DNA from: Candidatus Moranbacteria bacterium RIFOXYA12_FULL_35_19
GTDB taxonomy: Bacteria; Patescibacteriota; Minisyncoccia; Moranbacterales; UBA2206
DNA length: 64,000 nt
Direction: 5' to 3'
NCBI GenBank assembly: GCA_001784805.1
Contig: MFSE01000021.1
Location: 4,241-68,240, forward strand
Shown: positions 9,523-61,132 of the stretch, piece after piece
Layout: the number at the start of each line of letters is the position of its first letter
Numbering within the stretch: the stretch's first letter is position 1
Made by a program: the position numbers and the translations under genes
The notes under the pieces: model-generated
Databases searched by the model: none
What the model was told of the DNA's origin: nothing
The model's input: only the letters and a program-made list of their open reading frames with translations

Positions 9523-9629
9523 TTTACGAACTACGAAAATAATACGAAATACGAAAATACGAAAATAAAATAAAATACGGAAAATGTGTATAAATTTTTT
9601 CGTATTTCGCTTATTTCGTAGTTCGTAAA
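9523..9629. repeat. TACGAAA-family intergenic hairpin element
   Basis: Arm acgaactacgaaaataatacgaaatacgaaaatacgaaa; loop; arm tttcgtatttcgcttatttcgtagttcgtaa. Confidence 0.8.
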
Positions 9630-9635
9630 TGCCTT

Positions 9636-10646
9636 ATGAATGGCTTTACTAAAAAAACTGTTCAAACTTTGACACTGGGGGAAAAATTGAAAAAACTTAG
9701 AAGCGACAAAAGAGTTTCCCTTAGTGAAGTTTCTCGGCTGACAAAAATTCAGCCGGCTTATTTGGAATATTTAGAAGAAGGATGTTGGGAAAAATTGCCG
9801 GCCGATGTTTATGTAAAAGGATTTTTGCGAAGCTACGGCGAATTTTTAGGAGTGGATGAAAATATTCTCATCCGGCTTTATGAAAGAGAAAAAGAAATCA
9901 AAGAAAATTTAAATAAAAATAAAAAAAATAATACTGAAAAAAGAAAGCCGATAAATATTTCACCTTTTATTTTTACGCCTAAAAAAATAGCCATTTTAGT
10001 AATTTCCGCGTTGGTTGTTTTAAGTTTATCTTTGCTCTATCGGGAAATAAATTCTTTTGCCAGTGCGCCAAGTTTGATTATCTTTAATCCTCAAGACAAC
10101 AGTCAGATTGCAGGAGATTCGGTTTATATTGAAGGCATAACAGATCGAGAGGCGCTTCTTTTTGTAAATGGCCAGCCGGTTTTAGTGGGGGACGACGGTC
10201 GATTCAAGGAAAATTTGACTTTACAATCCGGACTCAATATTATAAATGTGAGAGCGATAAATAAATTTGACAAAGAAACAGTTGAAAATTTGAATGTTAA
10301 TTCCAATTATGAAAAAAAAGAAGAGAATCAAAAACAGGAAGCAGATGAAAATGAAAATATTTCTAATTTAGATAATAAAAAAGAAATTCAAATAGAAATC
10401 AAAGTTGAACCTGGACCAGTTTGGATAAGCGCAGAGGCGGATGGCAAGTTGGTTTTTAGCGGAACGATGTTAAGTGGCGCAGTGCAAATTTTCAAAGCGC
10501 AGGAAAAAATAATGCTAAGTTCGGGGAATGGAAAATCAACTTTCATTATTCTCAACGGGCAAGATTTGGGAGCACTTAGTCCAAATTCAGGGGCGGTTAA
10601 GGAAGTGATTTTTACGCCAGAAACTGAGCACTTGCCAGAATTGTAA
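9636..10646 (+). CDS. rodZ: RodZ-like cytoskeleton protein (HTH + TM + DUF4115-like C-terminus)
   Basis: N-terminal HTH LGEKLKKLRSDKRVSLSEVSRLTKIQPAYLEYLE, central TM, C-terminal beta-rich domain. Confidence 0.7.
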   Translation: MNGFTKKTVQTLTLGEKLKKLRSDKRVSLSEVSRLTKIQPAYLEYLEEGCWEKLPADVYVKGFLRSYGEFLGVDENILIRLYEREKEIKENLNKNKKNNTEKRKPINISPFIFTPKKIAILVISALVVLSLSLLYREINSFASAPSLIIFNPQDNSQIAGDSVYIEGITDREALLFVNGQPVLVGDDGRFKENLTLQSGLNIINVRAINKFDKETVENLNVNSNYEKKEENQKQEADENENISNLDNKKEIQIEIKVEPGPVWISAEADGKLVFSGTMLSGAVQIFKAQEKIMLSSGNGKSTFIILNGQDLGALSPNSGAVKEVIFTPETEHLPEL

Positions 10647-10670
10647 TGGAGTGATACAATATCAGTGAGG

Positions 10671-10737
10671 TTTTACGAAATACGAAATAAGCTAAATACT
10701 AAAAATTTTTCGTATTTCGTTTATTTCGTATTTAGTA
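10671..10737. repeat. TACGAAA-family intergenic hairpin element
   Basis: ttttacgaaatacgaaataagc ... tttcgtatttcgtttatttcgta. Confidence 0.75.
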
Positions 10738-10769
10738 AAGAATAAAAAATAATAATTAAACAAAAGTCT

Positions 10770-11783
10770 ATGAAAGATTCAAACGAAAAGGATGACAAAA
10801 AATTAATTGCGGTGGTGGATGGAATTAAGGAAAAATTCGGCGAAGGGGTAATTATGAAATTGGGAGATGTAAAAAGAGTGGATGTGGCGTCAATTCCAAC
10901 GGGAGCAATTTCACTTGACATTGCTTTGGGCATCGGTGGAATTCCGCGCGGAAGAGTGGTCGAAATTTATGGACCGGAATCAAGCGGGAAGACAACTTTG
11001 ACTTTGCATATCATTGCTAACGCGCAAAAAGCGGGTGGTGTGGCGGCGTTTATCGATGCCGAGCATGCCCTTGATCCAGAGTATGCCAAAAGAATCGGAG
11101 TCAATATTAACGATCTTTTGATTTCTCAACCAGACAATGGCGAGCAAGCGTTGGATATTGTGGAAACACTTGTGAGCTCTGGCGAAATTAGTATCATCGT
11201 GGTGGATAGCGTGGCGGCGCTGGTGCCAAAAGCGGAAATTGAAGGTGATATGGGTGATTCGCATATGGGACGGCAAGCGCGACTGATGTCGCAGGCTCTG
11301 CGAAAACTCACGGCTATCATTGCCAGATCAAATTGCACTGTGATTTTCATCAACCAAATCAGAATGAAAATCGGAGTGATGTTTGGCAATCCGGAAACAA
11401 CTACGGGAGGCAACGCACTTAAATTTTATGCTTCAGTGCGAATCGAAGTAAGAAGAAGCGCGCAAATTAAAAAAGGTGAAGATATTGTAGGCAACAGAAC
11501 GAAAGTTAAAATTGTTAAAAATAAAGTTGCTCCACCTTTCAAAACTACCGAGTTTGATATTATGTATAATGAAGGTATCAGCGCTTCTGGAGATGCGCTG
11601 GATACGGGCGTAAAATACGAAGTAATTGAAAAGAAAGGCAACTCCTACAATTTTGGCGAGATAAAATTAGGAGTCGGACGCGAAACGGCCAAGGCTACAC
11701 TCAAAGCTGACGCTAAATTGGTAAAAGAAATTTCTAAAAATATTTACGAAAAAATAAAAGAAAAAGAAAAAGCGGAAGAATAA
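10770..11783 (+). CDS. recA: recombinase RecA
   Basis: GPESSGKTT Walker A; RecA L1/L2 regions; full-length similarity pattern. Confidence 0.95.
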
Positions 11784-11795
11784 AAAATAATCAAG

Positions 11796-11969
11796 TTACT
11801 GAAGAATTAAAATTTTTCCAAAATTGAACTCAAATTCTAAATTTTATAAACAAAAATTTCCCTCAATCAACGGCTACCAATGGAAATTTTTGGATAAAAT
11901 TTGAATTTTCCCGCCTGCCGGCGAGGCAGGTCAAACAGTAATTTCGCAAAAATTTTAATTCTTCAGTTA
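11796..11969. mobile_element. MITE-like element: ~21-bp terminal inverted repeats enclosing ~130 bp with an internal GC hairpin
   Basis: Left arm ttactgaagaattaaaattttt is the reverse complement of right arm aaaaattttaattcttcagta; internal cccgcctgccggcgaggcagg hairpin. Confidence 0.45.
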
Positions 11970-11998
11970 TTTTATAATAATAATTAAAAAATAATTTT

Positions 11999-12613: not shown

Positions 12614-12635
12614 ATTATACTTTCAAGACAAACAA

Positions 12636-12668
12636 AAAATCCCTGAAAATATTTCGGGGATTTTTTTA
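12636..12668 (+). terminator. intrinsic terminator after ndk
   Basis: aatccctgaaa-atatt-tcggggatt followed by ttttttt. Confidence 0.6.
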
Positions 12669-12680
12669 GACGCTAGCTTT

Positions 12681-12848: not shown

Positions 12849-12850
12849 AA

Positions 12851-12927
12851 TCATGAATCATGAAACATATAACATGAAACAAAAATGAAACAAAATTGTT
12901 TCATGTTTCATGTTGAGTGTTACATGG
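12851..12927. repeat. CATGAAA-family intergenic hairpin element
   Basis: catgaatcatgaaacatataacatgaaacaaaaatgaaac / gtttcatgtttcatgttgagtgttacatg. Confidence 0.75.
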
Positions 12928-13037
12928 TTGAGTTGATTTATTACAAGATATAATGTAGCATACAAGGGTAATAAAAGCAAGTGTTCGCGATGCGAATCTA
13001 CGAATGCATGCGAATCTACGAATAATAAAAAAAGTCT

Positions 13038-13727: not shown

Positions 13728-13893
13728 CTTGACTTTTGTCGAAAGATGATGTATAATAGATAGGTAATGAGAAAGCGGGTGAATGCCGCTTTTTTTATTT
13801 TTACCCTGTTGAATAAATTTTGCAGAGCAAAATTATTTTTCCTCCGGAAAAATTATTCAACAGGGTGAACTAATTATTAAAAAAAACAAAAAT

Positions 13894-14057: not shown

Positions 14058-14096
14058 ATAAAAAAAATCTGAATTTTAAGAATTCAGATTTTTTAT
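14058..14096. terminator. bidirectional terminator (aatctgaatt-ttaa-gaattcagatt flanked by A/T runs)
   Basis: Perfect 10-bp inverted repeat with T-runs on both strands, between the small ORF (+) and efp (-). Confidence 0.6.
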
Positions 14097-14654: not shown

Positions 14655-14738
14655 AAAAGCATATTAACATTTTAACATATTAACAAAAAAAACAAATTAA
14701 GCATGCTAAAATGCTAAAATGTTAATATGATAGAATGA
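14655..14738. repeat. GCTAAAAT/TTAACAT-family hairpin element (paired with 16145-16225)
   Basis: gcatattaacattttaacatattaac ... gcatgctaaaatgctaaaatgttaatatg. Confidence 0.7.
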
Positions 14739-14966: not shown

Positions 14967-15057
14967 TAGTTTTACGAAATACGAAATTAATACTAAATAC
15001 GAAAGTACGAAAGGGGAATTTAGTTGTTTCGTATTTCGCTTATTTCGTAGTTCGTAA
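14967..15057. repeat. TACGAAA-family hairpin element between rpsR and ssb
   Basis: ttttacgaaatacgaaattaatactaaatacgaaagtacgaaa ... gtttcgtatttcgcttatttcgtagttcgtaa. Confidence 0.85.
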
Positions 15058-15060
15058 TTG

Positions 15061-15546
15061 TTAAAAGGGTACATCTTCAATTTTTACTTCATTCTCTTCC
15101 TCGTCTAAGTTGATAGTGGGAATTTCTTCAGCGGGTGCTTCTTGACTAGTTGGGGTTGGCTTGGCTGGAGCTGGAGCAGGATTGTTATAAGAAGAAGGAG
15201 TTGCTCCATAGGCACTTCTTGGCTTTGAACCAAGTTGCATATTTTCTGCTATGATTTCTGTTTTATAACGATCAACCCCACTTTTATCGGTAAATTTTGT
15301 GGTTTGAAGTCTGCCTTCAATGTAGGCTTCTTGGCCTTTAATTAGATATTGTCCAGCAATTTCTCCCAGTCTTCCCCAAAGAACGATATTGTGAAATTCA
15401 GTGCGTTCTTGTTTTTGACCATTTTTATCTTTCCAAGTGTGTCCTGTCGCAAGACCAATCGAAGCCACTGTTTGTCCAGAGGGAGTATTTCTCACTTCTG
15501 GATCGCGCGTGAGTCGTCCGACTAAAATAACTTTGTTGACATTCAT
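15061..15546 (-). CDS. ssb: single-stranded DNA-binding protein
   Basis: OB-fold N-terminus, Gly/Pro-rich linker, acidic C-terminal tail ending DVPF. Confidence 0.9.
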   Translation of the reverse strand: MNVNKVILVGRLTRDPEVRNTPSGQTVASIGLATGHTWKDKNGQKQERTEFHNIVLWGRLGEIAGQYLIKGQEAYIEGRLQTTKFTDKSGVDRYKTEIIAENMQLGSKPRSAYGATPSSYNNPAPAPAKPTPTSQEAPAEEIPTINLDEEENEVKIEDVPF

Positions 15547-15550
15547 AATA

Positions 15551-15639
15551 GTTTTACGAAATACGAAATTAATACTAAATACGAAAGTACGAAAGAGGAG
15601 TTTTAATGTTTCGTATTTCGCTTATTTCGTAGTTCGTAA
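15551..15639. repeat. TACGAAA-family hairpin element between ssb and rpsF; near-identical to 14967-15057
   Basis: About 90% identity to the upstream copy over ~90 bp. Confidence 0.85.
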
Positions 15640-15642
15640 TTG

Positions 15643-16143
15643 TTAAATATTAAGTATTTCTTCTAACTTTTTATCAAGGTCGTCATTTTTTGGAGATTCT
15701 GGCTGGGTTTTTTCGGAATTTTTTTCGAGACTAACTTCGGGAGTTTCTTTTATTCCAGCCTTTTTTTCTATAATTTCCTTTTTTTTGGCTTTGTTTTTTT
15801 GAACAGTTTCTTTTTTGGTCAAATCCTCCATTCTTTCGTTTTTAGTTTTGAGTTCTGGCAAGTCTTGTGCTTTGCTCAAAATAAATCTGGCAATATTAGT
15901 GTTAAGATTAAATTTGGCGGTAATTTCTTTTAGATTTTGAGTATCTTCCAGATTGAATCGGCGGGCAATGTAGATTCCGTGATTTTCTTTGCCGACAGTG
16001 TAAGAAAGTTTTCTTTTTTCTAGCGTTTCTTTTTCCAGAAACTCTCCACCAGCATCTTTTACGATTTTTTCCACTTCAGACTTAATGTTTTCTAGCTCGT
16101 TTTCTTTCGAAGCGCCGACTAGATAGAAAATTTCATAGGTCAT
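15643..16143 (-). CDS. rpsF: 30S ribosomal protein S6 with C-terminal acidic extension
   Basis: MTYEIFYLVGASKENELENIKSEVEKIVKDAGGEFLEKETLEKRKLSYTV S6 core. Confidence 0.85.
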   Translation of the reverse strand: MTYEIFYLVGASKENELENIKSEVEKIVKDAGGEFLEKETLEKRKLSYTVGKENHGIYIARRFNLEDTQNLKEITAKFNLNTNIARFILSKAQDLPELKTKNERMEDLTKKETVQKNKAKKKEIIEKKAGIKETPEVSLEKNSEKTQPESPKNDDLDKKLEEILNI

Positions 16144-16144
16144 A

Positions 16145-16225
16145 TTGTCATTTTAGCATGTTAGCATATTAACAAAAAGTTATTAGCATTTGTTAAAATG
16201 CTAAAATGTTAATATGTTAAAATGA
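16145..16225. repeat. GCTAAAAT/TTAGCAT-family hairpin element (paired with 14655-14738)
   Basis: ttttagcatgttagcatattaac ... gttaaaatgctaaaatgttaatatg. Confidence 0.7.
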
Positions 16226-16239
16226 ATTAAATTAAATCC

Positions 16240-16340
16240 GTTCAAAGAAAGTCCTTGACGGATGGTAGTTTTCTTATCTCATCGGGGTCCGCCTTCGCTA
16301 AAGCTATGGCGGGACAAGCGAGAAAACTATTGGACTTTTT
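16240..16340. repeat. nested GC-containing palindrome (~95 bp)
   Basis: Outer aaagtcc/ggacttt, middle tagttttct/agaaaacta, inner gtccgcc/ggcgggac. Confidence 0.6.
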
Positions 16341-16384
16341 TGATTGATTATAGGTTAGCAATAAATTTAGTTTAAGTCAAGGGC

Positions 16385-16494
16385 TTTACGAAATACCCGC
16401 CTCGACTCGCGGAGACCGCTTGTCGACGCGAGGCGGGCGAAATAAGCGAAATACTAAAGTACGAAAAGGGAACTTAATTGTTTCGTATTTCGTA
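16385..16494. repeat. TACGAAA-family hairpin carrying a 42-bp GC-rich palindromic insert at 16396-16437
   Basis: cccgcctcgactcgcggagaccgcttgtcgacgcgaggcggg sits inside the AT-rich arms. The insert is related, in reverse complement, to the in-frame element in dnaE at 58494-58571. Confidence 0.75.
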
Positions 16495-16498
16495 AAAA

Positions 16499-24735: not shown

Positions 24736-24766
24736 TACGAATTACGAAAATTTACGAATGTACGAA
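24736..24766. repeat. left terminal inverted repeat flanking the GxxExxY gene
   Basis: ctacgaattacgaaaatttacgaatgtacgaa; the reverse complement of 25167-25198 matches at 28/32 positions. Confidence 0.8.
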
Positions 24767-25159
24767 AATAAATATAAAATTAAAAAAGACATATTATATC
24801 CACAGGAAGTTTTTGAAATTGTGGGGATTATGTATGATGTTTGGGATAAGGTTGGTTATGGGCATAAAGAAATTTTTTATGAAAAGGCTGCTGCAGAAAT
24901 ATTTAGAAAGAAAAATAAAAAATTTAAAGAGCAATTAAGATGCAAAGTAAAATTAGGAGATAAGGATTTGGGAATATACATTTTTGATTTTATTTATGAA
25001 GAAAAAATAGTCATTGAATTAAAACAGGGAGAAAATTTTTCAAAACAAAATATTAATCAAGTTTATGCTTATTTGAAAGCGACTAATCTGAAACTTGGGT
25101 TGCTTATCAATTTTACAAGAAAAGGTGTAAAGTTTAAAAGAATTGTAAATATAAAATAA
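24758..25159 (+). CDS. GxxExxY family protein (PD-(D/E)xK nuclease-like, TIGR04256-type)
   Basis: VGYGHKEIFYEKA (GxxExxY), DFIYEEKIVIELK (D..E.K), and C-terminal LKLGLLINFTRKGVKFKRIVN family signature. Confidence 0.85.
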   Translation: MYENKYKIKKDILYPQEVFEIVGIMYDVWDKVGYGHKEIFYEKAAAEIFRKKNKKFKEQLRCKVKLGDKDLGIYIFDFIYEEKIVIELKQGENFSKQNINQVYAYLKATNLKLGLLINFTRKGVKFKRIVNIK

Positions 25160-25166
25160 TTAAGAA

Positions 25167-25198
25167 TTCGTACATTCGTATGATTTCGTAATTCGTAG
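25167..25198. repeat. right terminal inverted repeat flanking the GxxExxY gene
   Basis: ttcgtacattcgtatgatttcgtaattcgtag; ends 4 nt before the hydrogenase large-subunit ATG. Confidence 0.8.
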
Positions 25199-25202
25199 AG
25201 TT

Positions 25203-26462: not shown

Positions 26463-26463
26463 T

Positions 26464-26556
26464 TCATGTAACATATAACATGAAACAATTTTTTAATAAT
26501 TTAATATTGTATGAATTGTGTAGCTTGTTGTATGCTACATGTTTCATGCTACATGA
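26464..26556. repeat. CATGAAA-family hairpin element
   Basis: catgtaacatataacatgaaaca ... tgtttcatgctacatg. Confidence 0.7.
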
Positions 26557-26933
26557 TTATGACAGAACTTAATCAAATTTATAAATGCAATGTTTGCGGG
26601 AACATTGTAGAGATGACTCATACTGGAATAGGTGAGTTGGTTTGTTGTGGACAACCGATGGAACTTAAACAAGAAAAAACGGAAGATGAAGGAATGGAAA
26701 AACATGTGCCCATAATTGAAAAAACGGCCATCGGCGTGATTGTGAGTGTAGGAAAAATTGCTCATCCGATGGAGTCAGCTCATTATATCGAATGGATTGA
26801 AGTAATCACGGAGCATCGAGTCTACAGAAAGCATCTTGAACCTAGTCAAGAACCATCGGCTGAATTTTGTCTGGAAGCGGAACGCATTGAAGCTAGGGCT
26901 TATTGTAATGTGCATGGACTTTGGAAATCCTAA
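26553..26933 (+). CDS. dfx: desulfoferrodoxin (2Fe superoxide reductase)
   Basis: N-terminal desulforedoxin CNVCGN...CCGQPM; C-terminal SOR domain HVPIIEKT...H..E..H; the start is trimmed from 26511 to avoid hairpin-encoded residues. Confidence 0.85.
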   Translation: MIMTELNQIYKCNVCGNIVEMTHTGIGELVCCGQPMELKQEKTEDEGMEKHVPIIEKTAIGVIVSVGKIAHPMESAHYIEWIEVITEHRVYRKHLEPSQEPSAEFCLEAERIEARAYCNVHGLWKS

Positions 26934-27288: not shown

Positions 27289-27386
27289 ACATATAACATG
27301 TAACATACAACATGTAACATGCAACAAAAGGCAAGAATTTCATAAATTTTTATGCTATATGTTTCATGCTTCATGTTTCATGAATT
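27289..27386. repeat. CATGAAA-family hairpin element
   Basis: acatataacatgtaacatacaacatgtaacatgcaac ... gtttcatgcttcatgtttcatg. Confidence 0.7.
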
Positions 27387-31299: not shown

Positions 31300-31315
31300 A
31301 TTTTTTGAATTTTTG

Positions 31316-31333
31316 ATCCGCCAGTTGGCGGAT
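31316..31333 (+). promoter_or_regulatory. GC-rich hairpin 30 nt downstream of VR (atccgcc-agtt-ggcggat)
   Basis: 7-bp GC stem with a 4-nt loop, placed just 3' of the VR-TR homology as in characterised DGRs. Confidence 0.6.
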
Positions 31334-31627
31334 TGAAACTTTGAAACTTTATTACTTTGACACTTTCTTTCGCGCGAATTTTTTGGTATCATTAATTTGG
31401 ATTGGTTGCATCGAACGGTTACGACTTTTCGAGACCTTTCTCGCAAGCGCAAATTGAGAGCGCGGACGGTCAAGACTTTCCGCGGAGGATTTGCGTCAAG
31501 TTTTCTAAAAAGAAAAAATTTGGTGTGCTGTGCTGGTGGATTTTAGATTCCAAATAAAATACAGCGTTGCTCCTTTTGCCAAATAGCGAATTGAGTAGGC
31601 AGTGGAATAGATGGCATGGCATACAAA

Positions 31628-31760
31628 ACCGACTCTGACGGCTATCCGAACGTGTTCAATGTGAATCGCAACGATGACGGCAAGTCGTGGCTGAATGACA
31701 ATTGGGCGAAGCCTGACAACAAGTGGAATGCTGACAATGAGATTGTCTTTCGCCTCCGAA
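31628..31760 (+). repeat. DGR template repeat (TR)
   Basis: Adenine-rich (AAC/AAT codons in the VR frame); ends with gtctttcgcctccgaaag (IMH*-like); lies in a locally GC-richer, probably structured transcript region. Confidence 0.9.
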
Positions 31761-31778
31761 AGTATTTTCTTTTCCGCA

Positions 31779-32129
31779 TTATTCAAAAGTGCGGTTTTTC
31801 TTTGGCGAATTTTCCAGTTTATTTTTCCAGCCCCATAACATCCTGCCAACTTCTTCAAGTTTGAGTGCAATTTCTTCGTATTGTTTATGAGAAATCAGTT
31901 TTGCGTCCCATGCTACGGAAATGATGAACTTAAGTTTGTCCAAAAGGAAAATACATTCAGAAATTTTTTCAATCTTTTCTTCTTTTTTGGAAAAATAAGT
32001 GATATAGCCAAGTTCTAATAAATCAAGAAGTTTATTTTCAATTCTTGCGCCGATGGTGTAGCGCGCATTTTTCTGTATATGAGGAACAATATTAATCCAA
32101 ATCAAATATCCCTCTTTGATTCTTTGCAA
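31779..32129 (-). CDS. avd: Avd-like accessory variability determinant (four-helix-bundle, TIGR02436-like)
   Basis: 116 aa; the C-terminus ISHKQYEEIALKLEEVGRMLWGWKNKL matches the family pattern ..EE.L....EI.KML.GL; opposite strand to TR/RT and overlaps the RT start by 14 nt. Confidence 0.6.
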   Translation of the reverse strand: MQRIKEGYLIWINIVPHIQKNARYTIGARIENKLLDLLELGYITYFSKKEEKIEKISECIFLLDKLKFIISVAWDAKLISHKQYEEIALKLEEVGRMLWGWKNKLENSPKKNRTFE

Positions 32130-36977: not shown

Positions 36978-37523
36978 ATGGCAAAACAATCTCAACATCA
37001 TGGCCGAGCTTGGTATGTATTACATACTTACTCTGGCTATGAAGATAATGTATCAAGAAATTTGCGTCAAAGAATTGAATCAATGGATATGCAGGATTTA
37101 ATTTTTGATGTGATGGTGCCGATTGAAAAGAAAATTAAAATTAAAGCGGGAAAAAGAACAGTGGTAGAAGAAAAAATATACCCAGGGTATGTTTTGGTAG
37201 ATATGATAGTCACGGATGCTTCTTGGTATGTAGTTCGAAACACGCCAAATGTTACGGGTTTTATCGGACTAGGAACAACACCTACGCCTGTTGATCCGCG
37301 GGAAATTGAAACGCTCAAGAAAAGAATGGGTGTGGCGGAACCGAAATATAAAATTGATGTCAAATCAGGCGACTCGGTTAAGATTATTGATGGACCATTT
37401 AAGGAATTTGATGGCAAAGTGGATGAAGTCGATGAACAAAAAGGCCGAATCAAAGTGTTAGTTTCTATTTTCGGACGGGAAACGCCGGTCGAGTTGGACT
37501 TTTTGCAAATAAACAAGATATAA
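36978..37523 (+). CDS. nusG: transcription antiterminator NusG
   Basis: NGN domain WYVLHTYSGYE; C-terminal KOW GDSVKIIDGPFKEFDGKV. Confidence 0.9.
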   Translation: MAKQSQHHGRAWYVLHTYSGYEDNVSRNLRQRIESMDMQDLIFDVMVPIEKKIKIKAGKRTVVEEKIYPGYVLVDMIVTDASWYVVRNTPNVTGFIGLGTTPTPVDPREIETLKKRMGVAEPKYKIDVKSGDSVKIIDGPFKEFDGKVDEVDEQKGRIKVLVSIFGRETPVELDFLQINKI

Positions 37524-37600
37524 CAGAAAAATACAGAAAATAGCAGAACAACACAGAAAAATTCTGTGTCATTCTGTAGGATTCTGTGTAGCTCTGTGCA
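37523..37600. repeat. ACAGAAA-family hairpin element
   Basis: aacagaaaaatacagaaaatagcagaacaacacagaaaa / ttctgtgtcattctgtaggattctgtgtagctctgtg. Confidence 0.7.
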
Positions 37601-38029: not shown

Positions 38030-38032
38030 GCT

Positions 38033-38127
38033 CCTACAAAATTACAAAAACATACAAAAATACAAAAGTACAAAAAATTAGAATTTCGTAATTTTGTACT
38101 TTTGTAAAAATTTGTATTTTTGTAGGG
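38033..38127. repeat. TACAAAA-family hairpin element (pair partner at 38973-39066)
   Basis: acaaaattacaaaaacatacaaaaatacaaaagtacaaaa / gtacttttgtaaaaatttgtatttttgtagg. Confidence 0.75.
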
Positions 38128-38197
38128 TTATAAATATTAATTAAGTGGGAGAATCTAACTGTTTTAAAAAAGATTCATTATTACCACAGAAAACTAT

Positions 38198-38972: not shown

Positions 38973-39066
38973 CTACAAAATTACAAAAACATACAAAAAT
39001 ACAAAAGTACAAAAAAGTAGAATTTTGTAATTTCGTAATTTTGTAAAAATTTGTATTTTTGTAGGT
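38973..39066. repeat. TACAAAA-family hairpin element (near-identical to 38033-38127)
   Basis: ctacaaaattacaaaaacatacaaaaatacaaaagtacaaaaaagtagaattttgtaatttcgtaattttgtaaaaatttgtatttttgtagg. Confidence 0.75.
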
Positions 39067-45102: not shown

Positions 45103-46110
45103 AAACTTTTTCACTTCTTTTTCTACATCCTTGTATTTCGGAAGCCAAATTATTCTTTTGTCTTTTTGAAACCAAGTCATTTGGCGCTTGGCGTAATTTT
45201 TTTCGGCGAGATAAATTTGTTCAAATAGTTCCCTGTTAAATACGGCTTCGCCTGTTTCGCTTCGCTCAAATTTAACAGGGTAAACCTCTTTGCGTAAATA
45301 TTCCGAGATTATCTTATAACCTAAACCGAAACTTTCCAATCTTTTCCAGCTGATTTTATTTTCGAAATGTAATTTTTTAACTTCCTTGATCATGCCTGCG
45401 AAGAATCTTTGCTTCAATCTTTTTTGGATATTCTGATAAAGTTTTTCTTTGGGGAGGTTGATTCCTATTTGTAGTGTTTCGTACTTTCGTTTATTTCGTA
45501 GTTCGTAAATGCTAGGGATTTTGCCGATACTTTTACAAATTTCAATAGCGCGAATGAGACGGACTGGATTTTTGGCGTCAATATTTTTTGCGCGAACCGA
45601 ATCTAATTTTTTTAGCATCTGGAATAATTTTTTGGCTGAATAATTATGTAATTTATTACGTAATTCCCAATCTGGTGCAACTTCTGGATAAATGACATTA
45701 TCAACCAGTGCTTTTATCCAAAAGCCGGTGCCACCACAAATAATCGGGATTTTCTCGCGCCCTAGAATATCTTTGATTATTTTGTCAGCATACTTTTTGA
45801 ATTTAGCCGAATTATATTCGGTCTTTGGACTTATAATGTCAATACCGTAATGAGGAATTCTTTCTGAGTAAAAAGTTCCCCCCTCTCTGTCGCGAGTACG
45901 CGACATCTCTCCCAAAGGGAGAGAGGGATATGAATTATCTTTTTCAATTTTTCCAGTACCAACATTCATGCCACGATAAATTTGGCGAGAATCCGCACTA
46001 ATTATTTCTCCGTTAAATTTTTTGGCAAGTTTAATTGCCACAGCTGATTTGCCAGATGAGGTTGGACCGAGAATAACAATTATTTTATTGTTTGCATAAG
46101 ATTCGCGCAT
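45094..46110 (-). CDS. miaA: tRNA dimethylallyltransferase, with in-frame repeat-element insertions
   Basis: IVILGPTSSGKSAVAIKLA P-loop, ADSRQIYRGMNVGT; insertion PSLPLGEMSRTRDREGG encoded by the GC palindrome. Confidence 0.9.
   Translation of the reverse strand: MRESYANNKIIVILGPTSSGKSAVAIKLAKKFNGEIISADSRQIYRGMNVGTGKIEKDNSYPSLPLGEMSRTRDREGGTFYSERIPHYGIDIISPKTEYNSAKFKKYADKIIKDILGREKIPIICGGTGFWIKALVDNVIYPEVAPDWELRNKLHNYSAKKLFQMLKKLDSVRAKNIDAKNPVRLIRAIEICKSIGKIPSIYELRNKRKYETLQIGINLPKEKLYQNIQKRLKQRFFAGMIKEVKKLHFENKISWKRLESFGLGYKIISEYLRKEVYPVKFERSETGEAVFNRELFEQIYLAEKNYAKRQMTWFQKDKRIIWLPKYKDVEKEVKKFLN
45478..45515. repeat. TACGAAA-family half-element inside the miaA coding sequence
   Basis: gtttcgtactttcgtttatttcgtagttcgtaaa matches the repeat consensus gtttcgtatttcgcttatttcgtagttcgtaa; encodes SIYELRNKRKYET. 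Confidence 0.7.
45878..45927. repeat. GC-rich compound palindromic element (family 1) in-frame in miaA
   Basis: cccccctctctgtcgcgagtacgcgacatctctcccaaagggagagaggg; about 22 extra residues relative to E. coli MiaA between GTGK and HYGIDI. Confidence 0.8.
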
Positions 46111-49530: not shown

Positions 49531-49619
49531 TTCTTTACGAATTACGAATCTCGTACACCTGCCTGCCGATAGGCAGGAATATACGAAATAAGAATTCTAA
49601 ATTATTTAACTTAAGCTTA

Positions 49620-56053: not shown

Positions 56054-56123
56054 TTTTACTTGAAACTGAAAAAGGCCTTGCGAAAGCCTGCCTCATCGGC
56101 AGACAAGCGGGGTCTTTTTTTAT

Positions 56124-56210
56124 GTTTTACGAACTACGAAATAAGCGAAATACGAAACAATAAAACTTTCTTTTCGTATTTCGTTAGTTTCGTAGTTCGT
56201 AAATTAAAAA
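56124..56210. repeat. TACGAAA-family hairpin element
   Basis: ttttacgaactacgaaataagcgaaatacgaaac ... ttttcgtatttcgttagtttcgtagttcgtaa. Confidence 0.85.
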
Positions 56211-57404: not shown

Positions 57405-57419
57405 GTGTCTGTCTTTTTT

Positions 57420-60400
57420 TTACCAAATATCAACCTTCCCCTCCGGCACAATTATTTTCAAAGCTTTTTCGAGCTCTGTGGTGTTTTGGATGCAGTAGGG
57501 GGTTTCGAGCTTGGATCCGCCAATGGAAAGATATACTTTCATAGCACCTAGTTCGCAACGATCAAATAGGGAGGAGAGATTTTTTAGGATGGCTTTGTCG
57601 AAATTTGGTGGGAGGGTAATAATTAATCTGGAAGATTTATTTGCCCTCTCTTGTCCCGACAAAGTCGGGATATACTCTCCCAAGGGGAGAGGAGGATTTT
57701 GAAGAGATTTTTTTGTAGGCTCACCGCCATTGTTTCTTTGCGTGTGGAGAATTCTTTTGAAATTTTCTAATTCTTGCTGGTTGATTGATTTGGCGCTGTC
57801 GCAAAGCAATTTGAATTCGCCGTCTTTGTCGGAAATTTTTCCCGTGGCTAAAATAATTTTGTCTACTTCCCAGATTGAACCGGTGGCTTCTAGAGTTTTG
57901 GGAAAAATCAAAATTTCCATTTGAGAAGTCGTATCTTCAATGGTGGCAAAAGCCATCATTTTTTGATTTTTGAGATAAATCTTTTTTATTTTGGAAATTA
58001 TTCCGCCGATGGAAACGGTTTGTCCAACCAGTTGAGGATTTATATTTCGAATTGGCACGGCCATTTTTTCTAAATAATCTTGATAATCTCGAACCGGATG
58101 ATCGCTAATATAAAGTCCAAGGAGTTCCTTTTCCCAAGCAAGCTTTTCTTTTTTAGAAGCCTCCACGGAAATCTCCAATTTTATTTCTGGCAATTTCATA
58201 TCTGCTTCTCCAAAAAGACTATTTTGTTTAGTACTTGAAATTTTTTCCAAATTTTTGGAGTGAGCGAGAATGTTTTCAATAGAAGATAAAACGGCATTTC
58301 TTTCGGCCAATTCTTCTAGCGCACCAACTTTTGAGAGAGCCTCAATGGATTTTTTATTCAAATCTTTATGCTTTACTCTTTCAATGAAATTAGTTAGACT
58401 CAAAAATTTTCCGCCTCTTTTTCTTTCTTCGACAATTTCATGAGCGACTGTGTGGCCGACATTTTTTACCGCATTTAATCCAAAGCGGATTTTCCCGCCT
58501 CGCGTCGACTCGCCTCGATCCGACAATCGAGTCGGAGCGGGCGAGCGATCGTCTCCGCGAGTCGAGGCGGGTTTAGTATTATTTTCTTCATTCATGATCA
58601 CGGCAAACTGCTCAAAACTTTCATTGACATTCGGGGACAGAACTTCGATGCCCATTTCTCGACACTCGGCAATTTCAATGGCGACACGATCAATATTGTC
58701 TTGATCAGAAGTGAGAAGCGCGGCCATAAATTCGGCTGGAAAATGCGCTTTCAGATAAGCGGTTTGATAGCCGACTAGCGCATAACACGCGGCATGACTT
58801 CTATTAAACCCATATCCCGCAAAAGGTTCGATGTAGGCAAAAACTTTTTCTCCAATAGTTCCGGCGATGCCTTGTTTCATACAGCCTTCAATGAATTTAT
58901 GTTTTTGCTCGGTAATCAGCGCAAAGATTTTTTTACCCATTGCTTTTCGAAGTACATCGGCTTCACCAAGAGTGAATCCGGCCAAGGCTTGAGCGATTTG
59001 CATCACTTGCTCTTGATAGACTGCCACACCGTAAGTTTTTTCTAAAATCGGTTTCAAATTCGGATGCAAATATTTAATTTCTTTCTCGCCGTGTTTTCTG
59101 GCGATAAAATCCGGAATCCAATCCATAGGACCGGGGCGATATAGCGCTACCATAGCAATAATGTCTTCAAGAACATTGGGCTTCAAGAGTTTTAGATATC
59201 TTTTCATTCCAGAACTTTCTAGTTGAAATACGCCGGTGGTGCGAGCTTCTTGCAAAAGGCGAAAAGTTTTTTTGTCATCCAGTGGTATATCGTCAATGTT
59301 GATTTCTTTTTGGCGAGTTTTTTTTACGATCTTAAGCGTGTTTTGAATAATAGTTAAATTTTTTAGTCCCAAAAAGTCCATTTTCAAAAGGCCAATTTTT
59401 TCCACAAAACTATATTTAGTCGAAGAAGAATATTGCGTCACAGTGCCGTCGCCTTTGCCGGTTATTTTTTGCAACGGAGTATATTCACTCACAGGTTCTT
59501 TGGTGATAACTACTCCGCAAGCATGCATCGAGGCATGACGCACCACACCTTCGAGCCGTCCGGCGCTGTCAATTAATTTTTTTCCTCCCTCATTATTTTT
59601 ATGCAAATCGCTAAATTCTTTGACATTTTCTAAAGCATCGGAAATTGTAGAAAACATCGGAATCATTTTAGCGGTTTTGTCGCAAAAGTCATAAGGCAGA
59701 CCGAGCGCCCGACCAGCGTCGCGGATGGCAGCGCGGGCGGCCATAGTTCCAAAAGTGATGATTTGCGCCACATGATCATTGCCATATTTTTTTCTCACAT
59801 ATTCCAAAACTTCATCTCTTCTGTCATCGGCAAAATCCATATCGACATCAGGCATAGAAATTCTTTCAGGATTCAAAAATCTTTCAAATAGTAAATCGTA
59901 TTTTATCGGATCAATATTAGTGATACCGATGAGATAGGAAACGAAACTTCCGGCAGCGCTACCGCGGCCGGGGCCAACCACGATGCCTTGTTCTTTGGCC
60001 CAATTGACAAAATCTTGCACGATCAAAAAGTAAGAAGCAAAACCAGTTTTTCTAATCACATCTAATTCATATTCCATTCTTTGTTTTTGCTCGGAGTCAA
60101 TATTCTCGCCAAATCTTTTTTTGAGTCCATCTTCGGTAAGACGCCGAAGATAAGTTTCAGCCGTATAACTTTGCGGAACATCAAATTCCGGAAGTTGAGT
60201 CTCCCCAAGTTTTATAGTAAGGTTGCATTTATCCACGATTTCTTGAGTATTAGCCAGTGCTTCGGGAATATTTTTGAAATGCTCGGCCATTTCCTCGGGG
60301 CTTTTGAGATAGAGCTCAAAAGCCATCAAATTCATGCGATTAGTTTCAGTAACTTTTTTGTTAGTCTGAATACACAGTAAAATATCTTGAATTTCATTGT

Positions 60401-61043
60401 CTTCTTTTTTTACATAGTGAATGTCATTGGTAGCGACTAGAGGAATATCTAATTTTTTAGAAATTGCGACAAGGGCATTATTGGCAATACTTTGGTTTTC
60501 AAATTTCGGATGATGTTGGATTTCTAAATAAAAATTACCTTTACCAAAAATTTCTTGATATTCTAGCGCCAACTTTTCTGCTTTTTCAAGATTGCCGGAA
60601 ATGGCGGTGGAAGGAACTTCTCCTTCGGCGCAAGCTGATAGCCCGATTAGTCCTTCAGAATATTTTCGAAGAATTTCTTTGTTGATTCTGGGTTTGTAAT
60701 AGAATCCTTCCAAATGAGCAATGGAAATTAGTTTCATCAAATTCTTATAGCCTTTTTCATTTTTGCAGAGTAAAATCAAATGATAGCGAGTTTTATCTTC
60801 TTGAGTATTATTTTTACTTAGATAATCTCCCGCGGTGAGATACATTTCACAGCCGATAATTGGTTTTATTCCTCGCTCTTTGGCTTTGATATAAAACTCA
60901 ATGGCGCCATAAAGCACGCCATGATCAGTAATGGCGAGAGAATCCATTCCCAATTCTTTGGCACGATCAAGAATGTCATCGACCTTGGCGAGACCGTCTA
61001 ATAGTGAATAGTGAGTATGGACATGGAGGTGGGTGAATTTCAT
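57420..61043 (-). CDS. dnaE: DNA polymerase III alpha subunit, carrying two in-frame GC-rich palindromic insertions
   Basis: PHP domain MKFTHLHVHTHYSLLDG, polymerase core, OB-fold; 1207 aa. Confidence 0.95.
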   Translation of the reverse strand: MKFTHLHVHTHYSLLDGLAKVDDILDRAKELGMDSLAITDHGVLYGAIEFYIKAKERGIKPIIGCEMYLTAGDYLSKNNTQEDKTRYHLILLCKNEKGYKNLMKLISIAHLEGFYYKPRINKEILRKYSEGLIGLSACAEGEVPSTAISGNLEKAEKLALEYQEIFGKGNFYLEIQHHPKFENQSIANNALVAISKKLDIPLVATNDIHYVKKEDNEIQDILLCIQTNKKVTETNRMNLMAFELYLKSPEEMAEHFKNIPEALANTQEIVDKCNLTIKLGETQLPEFDVPQSYTAETYLRRLTEDGLKKRFGENIDSEQKQRMEYELDVIRKTGFASYFLIVQDFVNWAKEQGIVVGPGRGSAAGSFVSYLIGITNIDPIKYDLLFERFLNPERISMPDVDMDFADDRRDEVLEYVRKKYGNDHVAQIITFGTMAARAAIRDAGRALGLPYDFCDKTAKMIPMFSTISDALENVKEFSDLHKNNEGGKKLIDSAGRLEGVVRHASMHACGVVITKEPVSEYTPLQKITGKGDGTVTQYSSSTKYSFVEKIGLLKMDFLGLKNLTIIQNTLKIVKKTRQKEINIDDIPLDDKKTFRLLQEARTTGVFQLESSGMKRYLKLLKPNVLEDIIAMVALYRPGPMDWIPDFIARKHGEKEIKYLHPNLKPILEKTYGVAVYQEQVMQIAQALAGFTLGEADVLRKAMGKKIFALITEQKHKFIEGCMKQGIAGTIGEKVFAYIEPFAGYGFNRSHAACYALVGYQTAYLKAHFPAEFMAALLTSDQDNIDRVAIEIAECREMGIEVLSPNVNESFEQFAVIMNEENNTKPASTRGDDRSPAPTRLSDRGESTRGGKIRFGLNAVKNVGHTVAHEIVEERKRGGKFLSLTNFIERVKHKDLNKKSIEALSKVGALEELAERNAVLSSIENILAHSKNLEKISSTKQNSLFGEADMKLPEIKLEISVEASKKEKLAWEKELLGLYISDHPVRDYQDYLEKMAVPIRNINPQLVGQTVSIGGIISKIKKIYLKNQKMMAFATIEDTTSQMEILIFPKTLEATGSIWEVDKIILATGKISDKDGEFKLLCDSAKSINQQELENFKRILHTQRNNGGEPTKKSLQNPPLPLGEYIPTLSGQERANKSSRLIITLPPNFDKAILKNLSSLFDRCELGAMKVYLSIGGSKLETPYCIQNTTELEKALKIIVPEGKVDIW
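57643..57695. repeat. GC-rich compound palindromic element (family 1) in-frame in dnaE
   Basis: gccctctcttgtcccgacaaagtcgggatatactctcccaaggggagaggagg encodes PPLPLGEYIPTLSGQERA; compare the miaA insertion SLPLGEMS. Confidence 0.8.
58494..58571. repeat. GC-rich palindromic element (family 2, cccgcctcg...cgaggcggg) in-frame in dnaE
   Basis: 78 nt = 26 codons (TKPASTRGDDRSPAPTRLSDRGESTR), absent from E. coli DnaE at this position; the reverse complement matches the intergenic copy at 16396-16437. Confidence 0.8.
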
Positions 61044-61046
61044 AAT

Positions 61047-61132
61047 GTTTTACGAAATACGAAATAAGCGAAATACGAAACGATTAAACTTCATTTTCGT
61101 ACTTTCGTATTTCGTTCATTTTGTAGTTCGTA
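61047..61132. repeat. TACGAAA-family hairpin element upstream of dnaE
   Basis: ttttacgaaatacgaaataagcgaaatacgaaacg ... ttttcgtactttcgtatttcgttcattttgtagttcgtaa. Confidence 0.85.

Follow-up and report, generated by a model that had tools for sequence, protein, structure and literature searches.

Long AT-rich hairpins between the genes of a groundwater Moranbacteria genome and a GxxExxY nuclease gene in the hairpin loop

The intergenic spacers of Candidatus Moranbacteria bacterium RIFOXYA12_FULL_35_19, a groundwater member of the Patescibacteria (CPR), carry long AT-rich hairpins. Are these hairpins signals that the host uses in its RNA or DNA, or are they elements that move? The window studied here is a stretch of 64,000 nucleotides (contig MFSE01000021.1, positions 4,241 to 68,240). 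A first-pass annotation, made from the letters of the window, had left the choice between transcription terminators or attenuators, mRNA-processing hairpins, a protein-binding array and a non-autonomous mobile family homogenized by local gene conversion. The evidence below inclines us to the last of these. On balance the hairpins probably belong to several families of mobile DNA elements of the MITE type, small, palindromic and non-coding, that are common in Moranbacteria and related Parcubacteria.

Architecture, folding and abundance of the hairpins

The hairpins are real. RNAfold of each site and an inverted-repeat scan find hairpin structure at every position that the first-pass annotation had listed (Table 1). 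The elements are AT-rich, non-coding near-palindromes of about 60-110 bp; by the same two methods, the arms of the window elements are 26-43 nt long and 76-89% complementary, and whole elements measure 70-110 nt. Each arm is an array of three to five units of 7-8 nt (TACGAAA, TACAAAT, CATGAAA, GCTAAAA and others). Self-matching within the arms is best at a lag of 7 or 8 nt, with identities of 0.5-0.73 at the best lag against 0.42 in shuffles. The arms can therefore be called heptamer-built, as had been proposed, in a rough sense, except for the ACAGAAA family, where the lag is 10 nt.

The folding energies bear out the structures. Compared with dinucleotide shuffles, the MFE z-scores of element-bearing spacers range from -2.8 to -9.1, with one weak exception at 27289 (z = -1.8), while 100-nt coding controls have a median z of 0.0 and fall below -3 in 3% of cases. 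The spacers of the 49531 and 61047 elements exceeded the scoring length and were left out of the z-scores. The hairpin census combines inverted-repeat scoring with the spacer z-scores; RNAfold of the whole window proved too permissive.

The heptamer TACGAAA occurs 49 times in the window (11.7 +/- 3.5 expected), and the 31-nt arm consensus of its family, TTTCGTATTTCGCTTATTTCGTAGTTCGTAA, occurs nine times where none is expected. Together the listed elements cover 1.5 kb (2.4%) of the window. They do not occupy nearly every spacer, as first thought: about 17 of the 56 spacers contain elements, 15 are shorter than 40 nt, and several of the rest hold terminators of the conventional A-tract/stem/T-tract kind (at 12634-12666 and 14062-14094) or other types of repeat. 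RNAfold also reveals GC-rich mini-palindromes nested inside the copies at 16385 and 49531. Palindromic insertions lie in frame within two genes, dnaE and miaA.

Table 1. Hairpin elements, separate arms and the loop gene in the window
Feature	Position	Strand	Context and properties
TACGAAA-family element	9523..9632		Between ftsK stop (9521) and rodZ start (9636); fold -39 kcal/mol; spacer z = -6.2; matches arm model
TACGAAA-family element, rodZ/recA spacer	10671..10740		37-nt arms, 89% complementary; spacer z = -3.8
CATGAAA-family element, divergent rpmB/M50 spacer	12849..12929		Spacer z = -6.1; overlaps rpmB start codon (12852-12854); relatives in 6 other loci
GCTAAAAT/TTAACAT-family element, rpsR/efp spacer	14655..14735		8-nt units; other family in L106
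TACGAAA-family element, ssb stop to rpsR start	14967..15060		Replaced in L106; paralogous to 15551 element; 94% identical to 15545-15647
TACGAAA-family element, rpsF stop to ssb start	15551..15642		100% identical in L106; loop has SD-like GAGGAG, then ATG
GCTAAAAT-family element, 4 nt 5' of rpsF start	16140..16229		Replaced in L106; relatives in L183
TACGAAA-family element, 3 nt past ychF stop	16385..16495		RNAfold; split by nested 45-nt GC-rich palindrome (16396-16442) with 95-100% identity in 11 loci of other species
5' arm of split element, CTACGAATTACGAAAATTTACGAATGTACGAA	24735..24775	+	Holds nuclease start codon
GxxExxY PD-(D/E)XK nuclease gene	24758..25159	+	133 aa; in hairpin loop; between hydrogenase small- and large-subunit genes (hydS/hydL)
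3' arm of split element, ATTCGTACATTCGTATGATTTCGTAATTCGTAG	25163..25200	+	3 nt before hydL start region
CATGAAA-family element, 3' of hydL stop	26463..26566		Spacer z = -3.1
CATGAAA-family element, 5' of gap start	27290..27384		Spacer z only -1.8
ACAGAAA-family element, nusG/rplK spacer	37523..37600		~10-nt units; spacer z = -6.2; relatives in L051, L040, L074
TACAAAA-family element, 3' of rplK stop	38032..38128		43-nt arms; 91% identity over 96 nt in L044
TACAAAA-family element, paralogue of 38032	38973..39066		9 nt before probable ATG 39074
Solo TACGAAA 3'-type arm within miaA CDS	45478..45508		In frame; arm model 26.7 bits; translates as IYELRNKRKYETL
Degenerate TACGAAA element, 5 nt 5' of thrS start	49531..49600		Nested CCTGCCTGCCGATAGGCAGG
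TACGAAA-family element, 18 nt 5' of ygjP start	56119..56210		39-nt arms, 85% complementary; spacer z = -8.0
TACGAAA-family element, 6 nt 5' of dnaE start	61047..61135		Inverted-repeat scan, RNAfold; present at L060 orthologous site, 91% identical while adjoining dnaE is 82%

The local near-identical pairs reported in the first-pass annotation are present. Copies on either side of ssb are 94% identical across 103 nt, and those on either side of rplA can be aligned across 104 nt. A third pair, thought to flank the GxxExxY gene (24736 and 25167), is not a pair of copies; the two sequences are the arms of one hairpin. Among 67 related loci, spacers of one locus have a hairpin in common in 8/89 cases and spacers of different loci in 34/8822, a 25-fold enrichment within loci (p = 6e-9). 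The elements thus tend to spread into neighboring spacers. They are set apart by whole genes with no regular repeat-spacer periodicity, in keeping with the earlier view that this is not a CRISPR array. That annotation had overlooked the GxxExxY gene within the split hairpin, the precise placement between stop and start codons and the occurrence across the clade.

Placement between genes and turnover in relatives

The elements settle in tiny gaps between operon genes, immediately past the stop codon and 7-11 nt ahead of the following start. In a set of 64 TACGAAA elements, 36 of 54 begin 1-4 nt past the upstream stop codon, and 42 of 56 have the downstream start at a distance of 0-12 nt. Elements interrupt the rpsF-ssb-rpsR and nusG-rplK-rplA operons in the window, and rpsG-fusA in relatives. 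The flanking genes are core housekeeping genes whose order is kept in about 70 relatives. A tRNA-Leu gene adjoins an arm in L034 and L049, where contigs end or are gapped.

Stable hairpins 3' of stop codons could be read as terminators or attenuators that follow each gene. However, the stems are not GC-rich and lack the T-run of an intrinsic terminator, and a terminator consensus scan did not flag them. The ordinary, classic terminators of the genome occupy the convergent gene ends in place of the elements; the hairpins lie within ribosomal-protein operons, or abut start codons in divergent spacers, and are optional in relatives. Termination as the role of the hairpins is scarcely credible, and we rejected it.

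The same elements occur far beyond the window. At least 96 stretches, which belong to about 14 GTDB species, contain the 31-nt TACGAAA arm pattern; the other window families likewise recur in other species. Orthologous ssb/rpsR and rpsR/efp spacers are bimodal in length, either empty (0-32 nt) or filled (42-245 nt), and z is below -3 in 55% of orthologous spacers of 45 nt or more. The comparison of orthologous spacers that the first-pass annotation had called for shows sites that are empty (0-32 nt) or filled (45-170 nt) in relatives. In the close strain L106, whose coding sequences are ~96-97% identical to those of the window, one of four hairpins is identical and the other three are swapped for another family, with the replacements running from stop codon to start codon. 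Such replacement excludes inheritance with drift. L012 and L067, which are 93% identical, differ by five filled-versus-empty sites within 5 kb, and L016 and L069 are similar. Gain, loss and replacement of the elements are much faster than point substitution. Near-identical 31-nt arms and loops at dozens of unrelated sites in ~14 species indicate copying, not local origin.

The invariant hexamer cores, spaced 7-8 nt apart, and their periodicity would also suit an array that binds a nucleoid or regulatory protein, or palindromes made in place by slippage without mobility. The dispersal of nearly identical arms and loops just described argues against both, as does the fact that the elements are optional and replaceable; for an array, the nuclease encoded in a loop is the only candidate binding protein found. 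We consider these possibilities very improbable.

A role in host RNA deserves more attention, although we judge it unlikely. The hairpins might be intercistronic signals for mRNA processing or stability that tune individual cistrons, with the sequence free to change so long as the fold is kept; RNase III sites, or the 3'-end protecting stems of chloroplasts and phage T7, would be the models. The very strong folding speaks for this, and so do the location in operons and co-oriented transcription units, the hairpins directly 3' of the tmRNA end in two species, and the finding that orthologous sites hold different sequence families with one architecture. The stems, however, do not change as RNA structure would. 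Compensatory changes number 6 against 7.3 +/- 1.9 expected, and the TTCGTA cores are invariant in sequence while the linkers vary. Read on the mRNA strand, 67 stem mismatches are A·C and 36 are G·U, the opposite of the bias expected for selection at the RNA level. Gene-less elements occur in both orientations (16 sense, 10 antisense), as if at random, and a 31-nt arm shared across species is unexpected for a purely structural signal. The hairpins are, moreover, optional at orthologous sites and replaced between near-identical strains. Rfam at the gathering threshold returned two tRNAs only and no family matching the hairpins. The compensatory, G·U and optionality evidence speaks against a structured functional RNA, and RNA processing finds no support as the reason for the elements. 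The transcribed hairpins may nevertheless be processed, and they may benefit the host through mRNA processing or stability.

The mobile family thus remains the best reading of the four. Filled and empty sites, family replacement, dispersal over ~14 species and local pairing all agree with it, including the local homogenization. The elements share several properties with MITEs: they are small and non-coding, end in inverted repeats, exist as dispersed copies and show insertion polymorphism.

The TACGAA/TACAAA families are linked to a GxxExxY nuclease gene

In a longer form of the TACGAA/TACAAA hairpins, the loop is a complete GxxExxY gene, with its ATG in the last unit of the 5' arm and its TAA opening the 3' arm. 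All 12 CPR GxxExxY (PF13366) loci examined are bracketed exactly by arms of TAC[GA]AA[AT] units. The gene is co-oriented with the host operon in 9/9 loci that have called neighbors, and it is found at hydS/hydL, at rpsG/fusA (three times), 5' of rpsA and at T2SS-F/pilin. Nucleases that are 81% identical sit at different junctions (hydS/hydL and rpsG/fusA), and the rpsG/fusA junction is occupied by three nuclease lineages. Nuclease lineage follows arm subtype across 41-84% identity. About 1.3 Mb of loci contained no loop genes within CATGAAA, GCTAAAA or ACAGAAA arms.

The D-ExK residues are invariant in GxxExxY and the PD-(D/E)XK nuclease fold is confirmed, from which the protein is predicted to be an active enzyme. 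GxxExxY gave no match in phage records or in a PDB sequence search, and a literature search returned no account of the CPR hairpins or of GxxExxY function or activity. Outside the CPR, a hairpin of CGCGGAT heptamers follows a Gemmatirosa plasmid copy, and a Treponema copy lies between the halves of a 16-nt inverted repeat; the association with palindromes may extend beyond the CPR.

Copies that carry the gene are scarce, 4 against 83 gene-less pairs among arm-selected loci. Gene-less loops contain AAGGGAG-N5-(A/T)TG joined to the 3' arm, matching the gene-carrying copy of L011. This remnant of a Shine-Dalgarno sequence and start codon suggests deletion from a gene-carrying ancestor. Many loops likewise retain an RBS-like GGAG followed by ATG or TTG, and the gene-less hairpins would then be internal-deletion derivatives of nuclease-carrying elements. 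The idea that the loop SD-ATG drives a mini-ORF acting as a relay to the downstream gene was rejected because the orientation of the elements relative to host genes is random.

The order of events could also be reversed. The palindromes might spread or arise by a trans-acting transposase, or by replication slippage and snap-back, and the nuclease gene would be a later invader, a free-standing homing gene whose product cleaves TACGAA hairpins that lack it and which is copied into their loops through arm homology. PD-(D/E)XK homing endonucleases are known, for instance I-Ssp6803I (PMC3424549). In every case the gene fills precisely the loop and has its ATG and TAA joined to arm units, gene-carrying copies are rare, and a palindromic target suits a dimeric PD-(D/E)XK enzyme. 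The start remnants in gene-less loops and the co-variation of nuclease lineage with arm subtype point the other way, but both would also be expected if a homing enzyme had evolved together with its target, so that this alternative overlaps with our main explanation. We think the invader scenario rather unlikely, if less so than a role in host RNA.

Returning to the nuclease as part of a mobile element, a bolder version can be put forward tentatively. GxxExxY proteins (PF13366/TIGR04256) may be the mobility enzymes of an unrecognized class of palindromic elements, with arms that are arrays of recognition units and gene-less derivatives that colonize stop-start junctions because a perfect hairpin preserves translational coupling there. 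Already in our main explanation, the invariant TACGAA cores would be the sites recognized by the nuclease, which would therefore drive spread, either by break-induced copying of the homing type or by another cut-dependent route. Homing alone hardly explains spread to non-homologous sites, and to our knowledge no lone 130-aa PD-(D/E)XK nuclease is known to act as a transposase. The exact stop-to-start replacement could also result from allelic recombination between strains or from template switching rather than transposition.

Tolerance by the host may follow from the fold, since an element that is co-transcribed would fold back on itself. The upstream stop and the downstream start would stay adjacent at the base of the stem, where the terminating ribosome could melt the pairing and expose the next start site. 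Operon expression and translational coupling would thereby be preserved.

Comparison with known elements, and consequences

Among the nearest parallels are the Correia elements (CREE) of Neisseria and the ERIC/IRU elements of enterobacteria, MITEs whose transcripts fold into hairpins within operons. They are likewise small, non-coding and dispersed in many copies, have long terminal inverted repeats, vary in insertion among strains, and are transcribed along with the genes near which they insert. RNase III cleaves the Correia hairpins. The CPR elements differ in that their arms are built of 7-8-nt units, their placement between stop and start is far more precise, and the product of their long form is a PD-(D/E)XK nuclease instead of a DDE transposase. 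They also show no demonstrable TA duplication: the flanks of 73 copies have no consistent direct repeat, the terminal TA or TTA is inseparable from the terminal repeat unit, and filled and empty alleles were too diverged for alignment in the search for target-site duplications, which yielded no other footprint of transposition either.

REP/REPIN-RAYT systems are also multi-copy, clade-specific extragenic palindromes with one associated gene between repeats. REPs, in contrast, have short GC-rich stems, a conserved tetranucleotide and an HUH Y1 transposase as partner. We rejected this assignment, as no Y1 gene lies between or beside the AT-rich hairpins; the genes of the window include no transposase or RAYT, only an RT gene. 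RAYT-like (Y1) genes of related genomes (L028, L095) have palindromes of a different kind on their flanks, short and GC-rich. The nested mini-palindromes probably derive from these; the AT-rich hairpins probably do not.

Like GxxExxY, the free-standing homing genes (phage seg/mob, I-Ssp6803I) are small optional nuclease genes, co-oriented with conserved host genes and found at several different junctions, but the classical ones have neither flanking inverted repeats nor multi-copy gene-less derivatives. Integron attC sites are imperfect palindromes of 60-140 bp that follow each gene and resemble one another in any one array but differ from species to species; the likeness possibly extends to a strand-specific fold, as the mismatch asymmetry of the CPR elements favors the non-mRNA strand. 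Unlike those of integron cassettes, the genes next to the CPR elements are housekeeping genes whose synteny is conserved. No integrase is found among the annotated window genes and the flanked genes are core genes, so that an integron cassette array was rejected.

The intervening sequences of 23S rRNA form a long stem, sometimes with a small ORF in its loop, and they are tolerated as the stem folds out. They lie in rRNA helices of an essential transcribed unit and are removed by RNase III, whereas the CPR elements lie between protein-coding genes. The palindromic elements of Rickettsia are also tolerated in compact genomes, and also occur in frame within genes, but they are not made of repeated units, and no gene is associated with them. 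Heptamer-unit intergenic repeats are known from cyanobacteria and Beggiatoaceae (STRR; TAACTGA repeats, PMC4679880). Those arrays are direct repeats, while the CPR arms are inverted.

These results place a large orphan nuclease family in a concrete genomic context for the first time and suggest a function for it that can be tested. If the nuclease recognizes the repeat units, the family could be a source of new sequence- or structure-specific nucleases. The streamlined genomes of these ultra-small bacteria have hardly any intergenic DNA, yet they can carry many selfish repeats, about 2.4% of the window, at places where hairpins do no harm. The elements account for structural variation between strains and are likely breakpoints in metagenome assembly. 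Gene callers can be misled by the start codons within arms and by the in-frame insertions. PF13366/TIGR04256 comprises thousands of proteins.

Hairpins in the spacers of the window

The window has a GC content of 31-42% and densely packed genes. Pfam annotation gives the order ftsK, rodZ, recA, ndk, rpmB(-), M50 and efp-rpsR-ssb-rpsF-ychF (this last group all on the minus strand); uvrD, htrA, hydrogenase small subunit, GxxExxY, hydrogenase large subunit, dfx, hypA and gap; reverse transcriptase and murD; nusG-rplK-rplA and then a nucleotide-metabolism cluster; and thrS(-), an RND pump, dnaE(-) and rnhB. Identical contigs carrying its SSB protein are present in Rifle groundwater metagenomes and in the MAGs GCA_001784915.1 and GCA_036847305.1. 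Matches to the hairpin arm pattern came almost exclusively from MAGs of Moranbacteria and Parcubacteria, which places the organism in the Moranbacteria lineage of the CPR/Patescibacteria.

Stem-loop folding and inverted-repeat scans recovered a long hairpin at every site where the first-pass annotation had placed one. The spacers with elements fold better than dinucleotide shuffles (MFE z -2.8 to -9.1); the fold of the 27289 spacer is weak (z = -1.8), and the scoring covered all but the overlong spacers around the elements at 49531 and 61047. Coding controls of 100 nt gave a median z of 0, with 3% below -3. TACGAAA shows a four-fold excess over expectation in the window, and the 31-nt arm consensus TTTCGTATTTCGCTTATTTCGTAGTTCGTAA has nine copies against none expected. 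The description of the arms as heptamer-built is roughly right: they match themselves with a period of 7 or 8 nt, and of 10 nt in the ACAGAAA family. Occupancy fell well short of "nearly every spacer": elements are found in about 17 of 56, another 15 are shorter than 40 nt, and several more hold ordinary terminators or different repeats. The supposed two copies at 24736 and 25167 are really a single hairpin with a gene between its arms.

Local near-identical pairs proved to be general, beyond the window as well as in it, with hairpin sharing 25 times commoner within a locus than between loci. Paralogous window copies resemble each other over the whole interval that separates one gene's stop codon and the following gene's start codon. 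Spread to neighbouring spacers by local hopping, by template switching within a fork, or by recombination between strain alleles is possible.

A role as terminators is not supported, the unit-built hairpins having no GC-rich stem plus T-run. Classic A-tract/GC-stem/T-tract terminators are present in the genome, and it is these, not unit-built hairpins, that occupy convergent gene ends. Unit-built hairpins occur within rpsF-ssb-rpsR-efp and nusG-rplK-rplA; those of divergent spacers overlap the start codon of rpmB and stand 5, 6 and 18 nt from those of thrS, dnaE and ygjP.

Members of the TACGAAA family do not differ in their TTCGTA cores; all variation falls at linker positions, in one arm as in the other. 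Compensatory changes at paired positions numbered 6, against 7.3 +/- 1.9 in arms shuffled between copies, with only 14 symmetric copies available. In the related ssb loci (L106-L185), whose mRNA strand is known, the transition-type stem mismatches of 48 hairpin clusters were A·C in 67 cases and G·U in 36 on the mRNA strand (p = 0.003), and the window hairpins have the same tendency. The RNA hairpin is, if anything, less well paired than the other strand. This speaks against selection for an mRNA fold; a fold on the opposite DNA strand, or biased mutation, may lie behind it.

Turnover and placement at gene junctions

We fetched 80 loci orthologous for ssb (58-97% amino-acid identity). Unit-built hairpins are usual in their rpsF/ssb, ssb/rpsR and rpsR/efp spacers, and the unit families differ between loci (TACGAAA, CATGAAA/ACATAAA, TACAAAT, GCTAAAA, CGAATC-type, AACTAATC, CAGTAAT and others). 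In some relatives only 5-30 nt separate the genes. Spacer lengths are bimodal, either 0-32 nt or 42-245 nt, and z is below -3 in 55% of the 134 spacers of at least 45 nt.

The clearest case is L106, with coding DNA about 96-97% identical to that of the window. Its rpsF/ssb hairpin is 100% identical. The hairpins upstream of rpsF, at ssb/rpsR and at rpsR/efp have each given way to a member of another family, the three newcomers being near-identical to one another. The replacement extends from right after the stop codon to right before the ATG. Between L012 and L067, which are 93% identical, five filled-versus-empty sites occur within 5 kb, and L016 and L069 show a similar pattern. The filled, empty and replaced sites therefore exclude inheritance with drift, and the absence of hairpins from orthologous spacers, which the first-pass annotation had named as telling, goes against any reading of conserved function.

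Upstream of rpsF, two hairpins are separated by a GC-richer segment, which could be a leader or promoter region. It is nearly identical in L106 and the window except for a 35-nt direct duplication (CTTGTCCCGCCGTAGCTTTAG...GGCGGA). In one metagenome contig, L009, tuf-rpsJ runs straight into the rpsF region at the point where the window has the 16385 hairpin, through either a rearrangement or an assembly chimera at a repeat.

A degenerate 31-nt arm pattern matched at least 96 stretches in GTDB representative genomes, from about 14 Moranbacteria/Parcubacteria species and three contigs in MAGs labelled otherwise; genomic G+C of the arm-bearing species, inferred from MAG names, is about 35 to 44%. 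An nhmmer arm model detected 87 instances of a 5' arm with a 3' arm after it, the loop being 8-137 nt in 83. Close copies of the window's TACAAAA, ACAGAAA, CATGAAA and GCTAAAAT families occur in other species too. Among 64 non-redundant TACGAAA elements, the upstream stop codon is 1-4 nt from the outer end in 36 of 54 cases and the downstream start codon 0-12 nt away in 42 of 56; 41 have a tandem stop/start context and five a convergent one. Placement is extremely precise. The elements are multi-copy palindromes that are gained, lost, replaced and locally duplicated at stop-start junctions. Certain TACGAAA sequences adjoin RNA genes: in two species (L068, L079) a hairpin comes immediately after the tmRNA 3' end, and in two (L034, L049) the 5' end of tRNA-Leu borders on an arm.

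A GxxExxY nuclease gene and its arms

The GxxExxY gene of the window sits precisely in the gap between the arms of a TACGAA hairpin. Its product belongs to PF13366 (TIGR04256), a family whose function is entered as "Unknown" (PMC3424549). D77, E87 and K89 are invariant in 50 homologues, and the confident AlphaFold model (pLDDT 90) has as its nearest solved folds Cas4/SSO0001, the Dna2 nuclease domain and type II restriction enzymes.

All four GxxExxY genes found in about 1.2 Mb of loci are bracketed in this way, as are eight more CPR loci with homologues 46-81% identical. The 5' arm ends with TACGAATG or TACAAATG, which includes the nuclease start codon, and the 3' arm (TAATTCGTA or TAATTTGTA) begins with the stop codon. 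The junctions include hydS/hydL (twice), rpsG/fusA (in three loci, each with its own nuclease lineage), a site upstream of rpsA and one that separates a T2SS-F gene from a pilin gene, the nuclease gene being co-oriented with its called neighbours in every case. Nucleases 81% identical reside at different junctions; therefore the gene-plus-arms unit moves. The clades of the nuclease correspond to subtypes of the arms (31-nt TACGAAA consensus, CTACGAAT-type and TACAAAT-type), and two unit families share ends with the nuclease-encoding form.

Many gene-less loops carry GTACGAAAAGGGAG-TTTAA-(A/T)TG fused to the 3' arm. The GTACGAAAAGGGAG loop contains a ribosome-binding-site-like motif and a start codon, as does the gene-carrying L011 copy, and fits an origin of the gene-less elements by internal deletion. 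These elements take either orientation relative to the host genes (16 against 10), which therefore rules out the loop start codon as a relay ORF serving the host.

The elements resemble hairpin-forming MITEs (Correia, ERIC) in the way they work. The flanks of 73 copies gave no consistent direct repeat that would mark a target-site duplication, a terminal TA/TTA being indistinguishable from the repeat unit, and the longer form with the same arms encodes a nuclease where a MITE relative would be expected to encode a transposase. They have some traits in common with REP/REPIN sequences but fall outside that class on the RAYT criterion; RAYT-like genes with short flanking GC-rich palindromes do exist in related genomes. 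The gene-carrying form is like a free-standing homing endonuclease gene, from which its inverted-repeat arms and its many gene-less derivatives set it apart. Literature searches found no publication on these hairpins. The partnership with a nuclease may turn out to be the more novel aspect.

The repeated TACGAA/TACAAA cores are predicted to be recognition sites of the nuclease, whose cuts would drive spread by homing-like copying or another break-dependent route. Persistence may follow from the perfect stem, which would loop the insert out of the mRNA and bring the stop codon and the next start codon together at the stem base. A ribosome at the stop codon would then have to melt the first ~10 bp of the stem, freeing a U-rich strand just upstream of the next AUG; no Shine-Dalgarno motif was seen between hairpin and start in these operons.

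Outside CPR, the association of GxxExxY with repeats is anecdotal, at four plasmid loci. Downstream of a Gemmatirosa gene stands a hairpin whose 32-nt arms are made up of CGCGGAT heptamers. A 16-nt inverted repeat encloses a Treponema copy, and a Fusobacteria copy lies between direct repeats; these three have an ATCCG(C)GT-like core in common. The flanks of a Persicobacter copy are rich in AATCC-like oligomers.

Other repeats and insertions

The GC-rich mini-palindromes nested in some arms probably come from RAYT-like genes, and the RAYT/IS200-like Y1 and PF01797 genes are their likely mobilisers. Eleven loci of other species, L098, L104, L054, L068 and L017 among them, hold the nested palindrome CCCGCCTCGACTCGCGGAGACCGCTTGTCGACGCGAGGCGGG at 95-100% identity. 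The DnaE insertion, absent in the L060 orthologue, is like a Rickettsia palindromic element (RPE) in lying within coding sequence. A solo arm in miaA is a putative insertion. The region of the reverse transcriptase gene could be a diversity-generating retroelement. The recA/ndk spacer, 86% identical over 175 nt in L063 and with arms recurring in 8 loci, represents either a further repeat family or a non-coding RNA. L016 and L069 are polymorphic for a distinct MITE-like family, whose terminal repeats are TTTACCCTGTTGAATAA / TTATTCAACAGGGTGAA.

Coordinates of features in the window and in related loci (L-numbers)
Feature	Locus	Coordinates	Description
recA/ndk spacer	window	11784-11998	215 nt; 39-nt inverted arms 114 nt apart; z = -6.9
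Classic terminators (examples)	window	12634-12666; 14062-14094	
MITE-like family	window	13800-13869	
MITE-like family	L016	3187-3397	
MITE-like family	L069	2212-2430	
MITE-like family	L100		
GC-richer segment	window	16230-16380	
tuf-rpsJ/rpsF join	L009	1-1943	compared with window 16500
Nested palindrome CCCGCCTCGACTCGCGGAGACCGCTTGTCGACGCGAGGCGGG	window	16396-16442	42-45 nt, GC-rich, in TACGAAA arm
GxxExxY ORF	window	24758-25159	133 aa
Reverse transcriptase region	window	29353-33192	648-aa ORF without Pfam match, 816-nt non-coding gap, reverse transcriptase gene
Reverse transcriptase gene	window	32116-33192	RVT_1
Solo TACGAAA arm in miaA	window	45478-45508, minus strand	in frame, translated ..IYELRNKRKYETL..
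Nested palindrome CCTGCCTGCCGATAGGCAGG, second type	window	49555	
Nested palindrome CCTGCCTGCCGATAGGCAGG, second type	L042		
GC-rich palindrome in dnaE	window	58500-58560, minus strand	26-aa in-frame insertion (PASTRGDDRSPAPTRLSDRGESTRGG) in HHH domain
Palindrome in rnhB coding sequence	window	62556-62596	GGACATCGGATGTCC...GGACATCCGATGTCC
Long inverted repeat	window	63294-63424	GTCATTGCGAGCGAAGCGAAGCAATCTC...; short matches in L063, L088
tmRNA/tRNA-Leu-adjacent site	L068	3077-3164	
tmRNA/tRNA-Leu-adjacent site	L079	1095-1175	
tmRNA/tRNA-Leu-adjacent site	L034	7761-7873	
tmRNA/tRNA-Leu-adjacent site	L049	1814-1929	
RAYT/IS200-like Y1 transposase gene	L028	2731-3462	short GC-rich palindromes flank
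RAYT/IS200-like Y1 transposase gene	L095	5552-6300	short GC-rich palindromes flank
PF01797 gene	L209	2184-2612	next to GxxExxY locus
Gemmatirosa plasmid hairpin	L195	1011-1083	
Treponema plasmid GxxExxY copy	L193	1458-1918	
Fusobacteria plasmid GxxExxY copy	L192	1380-1950
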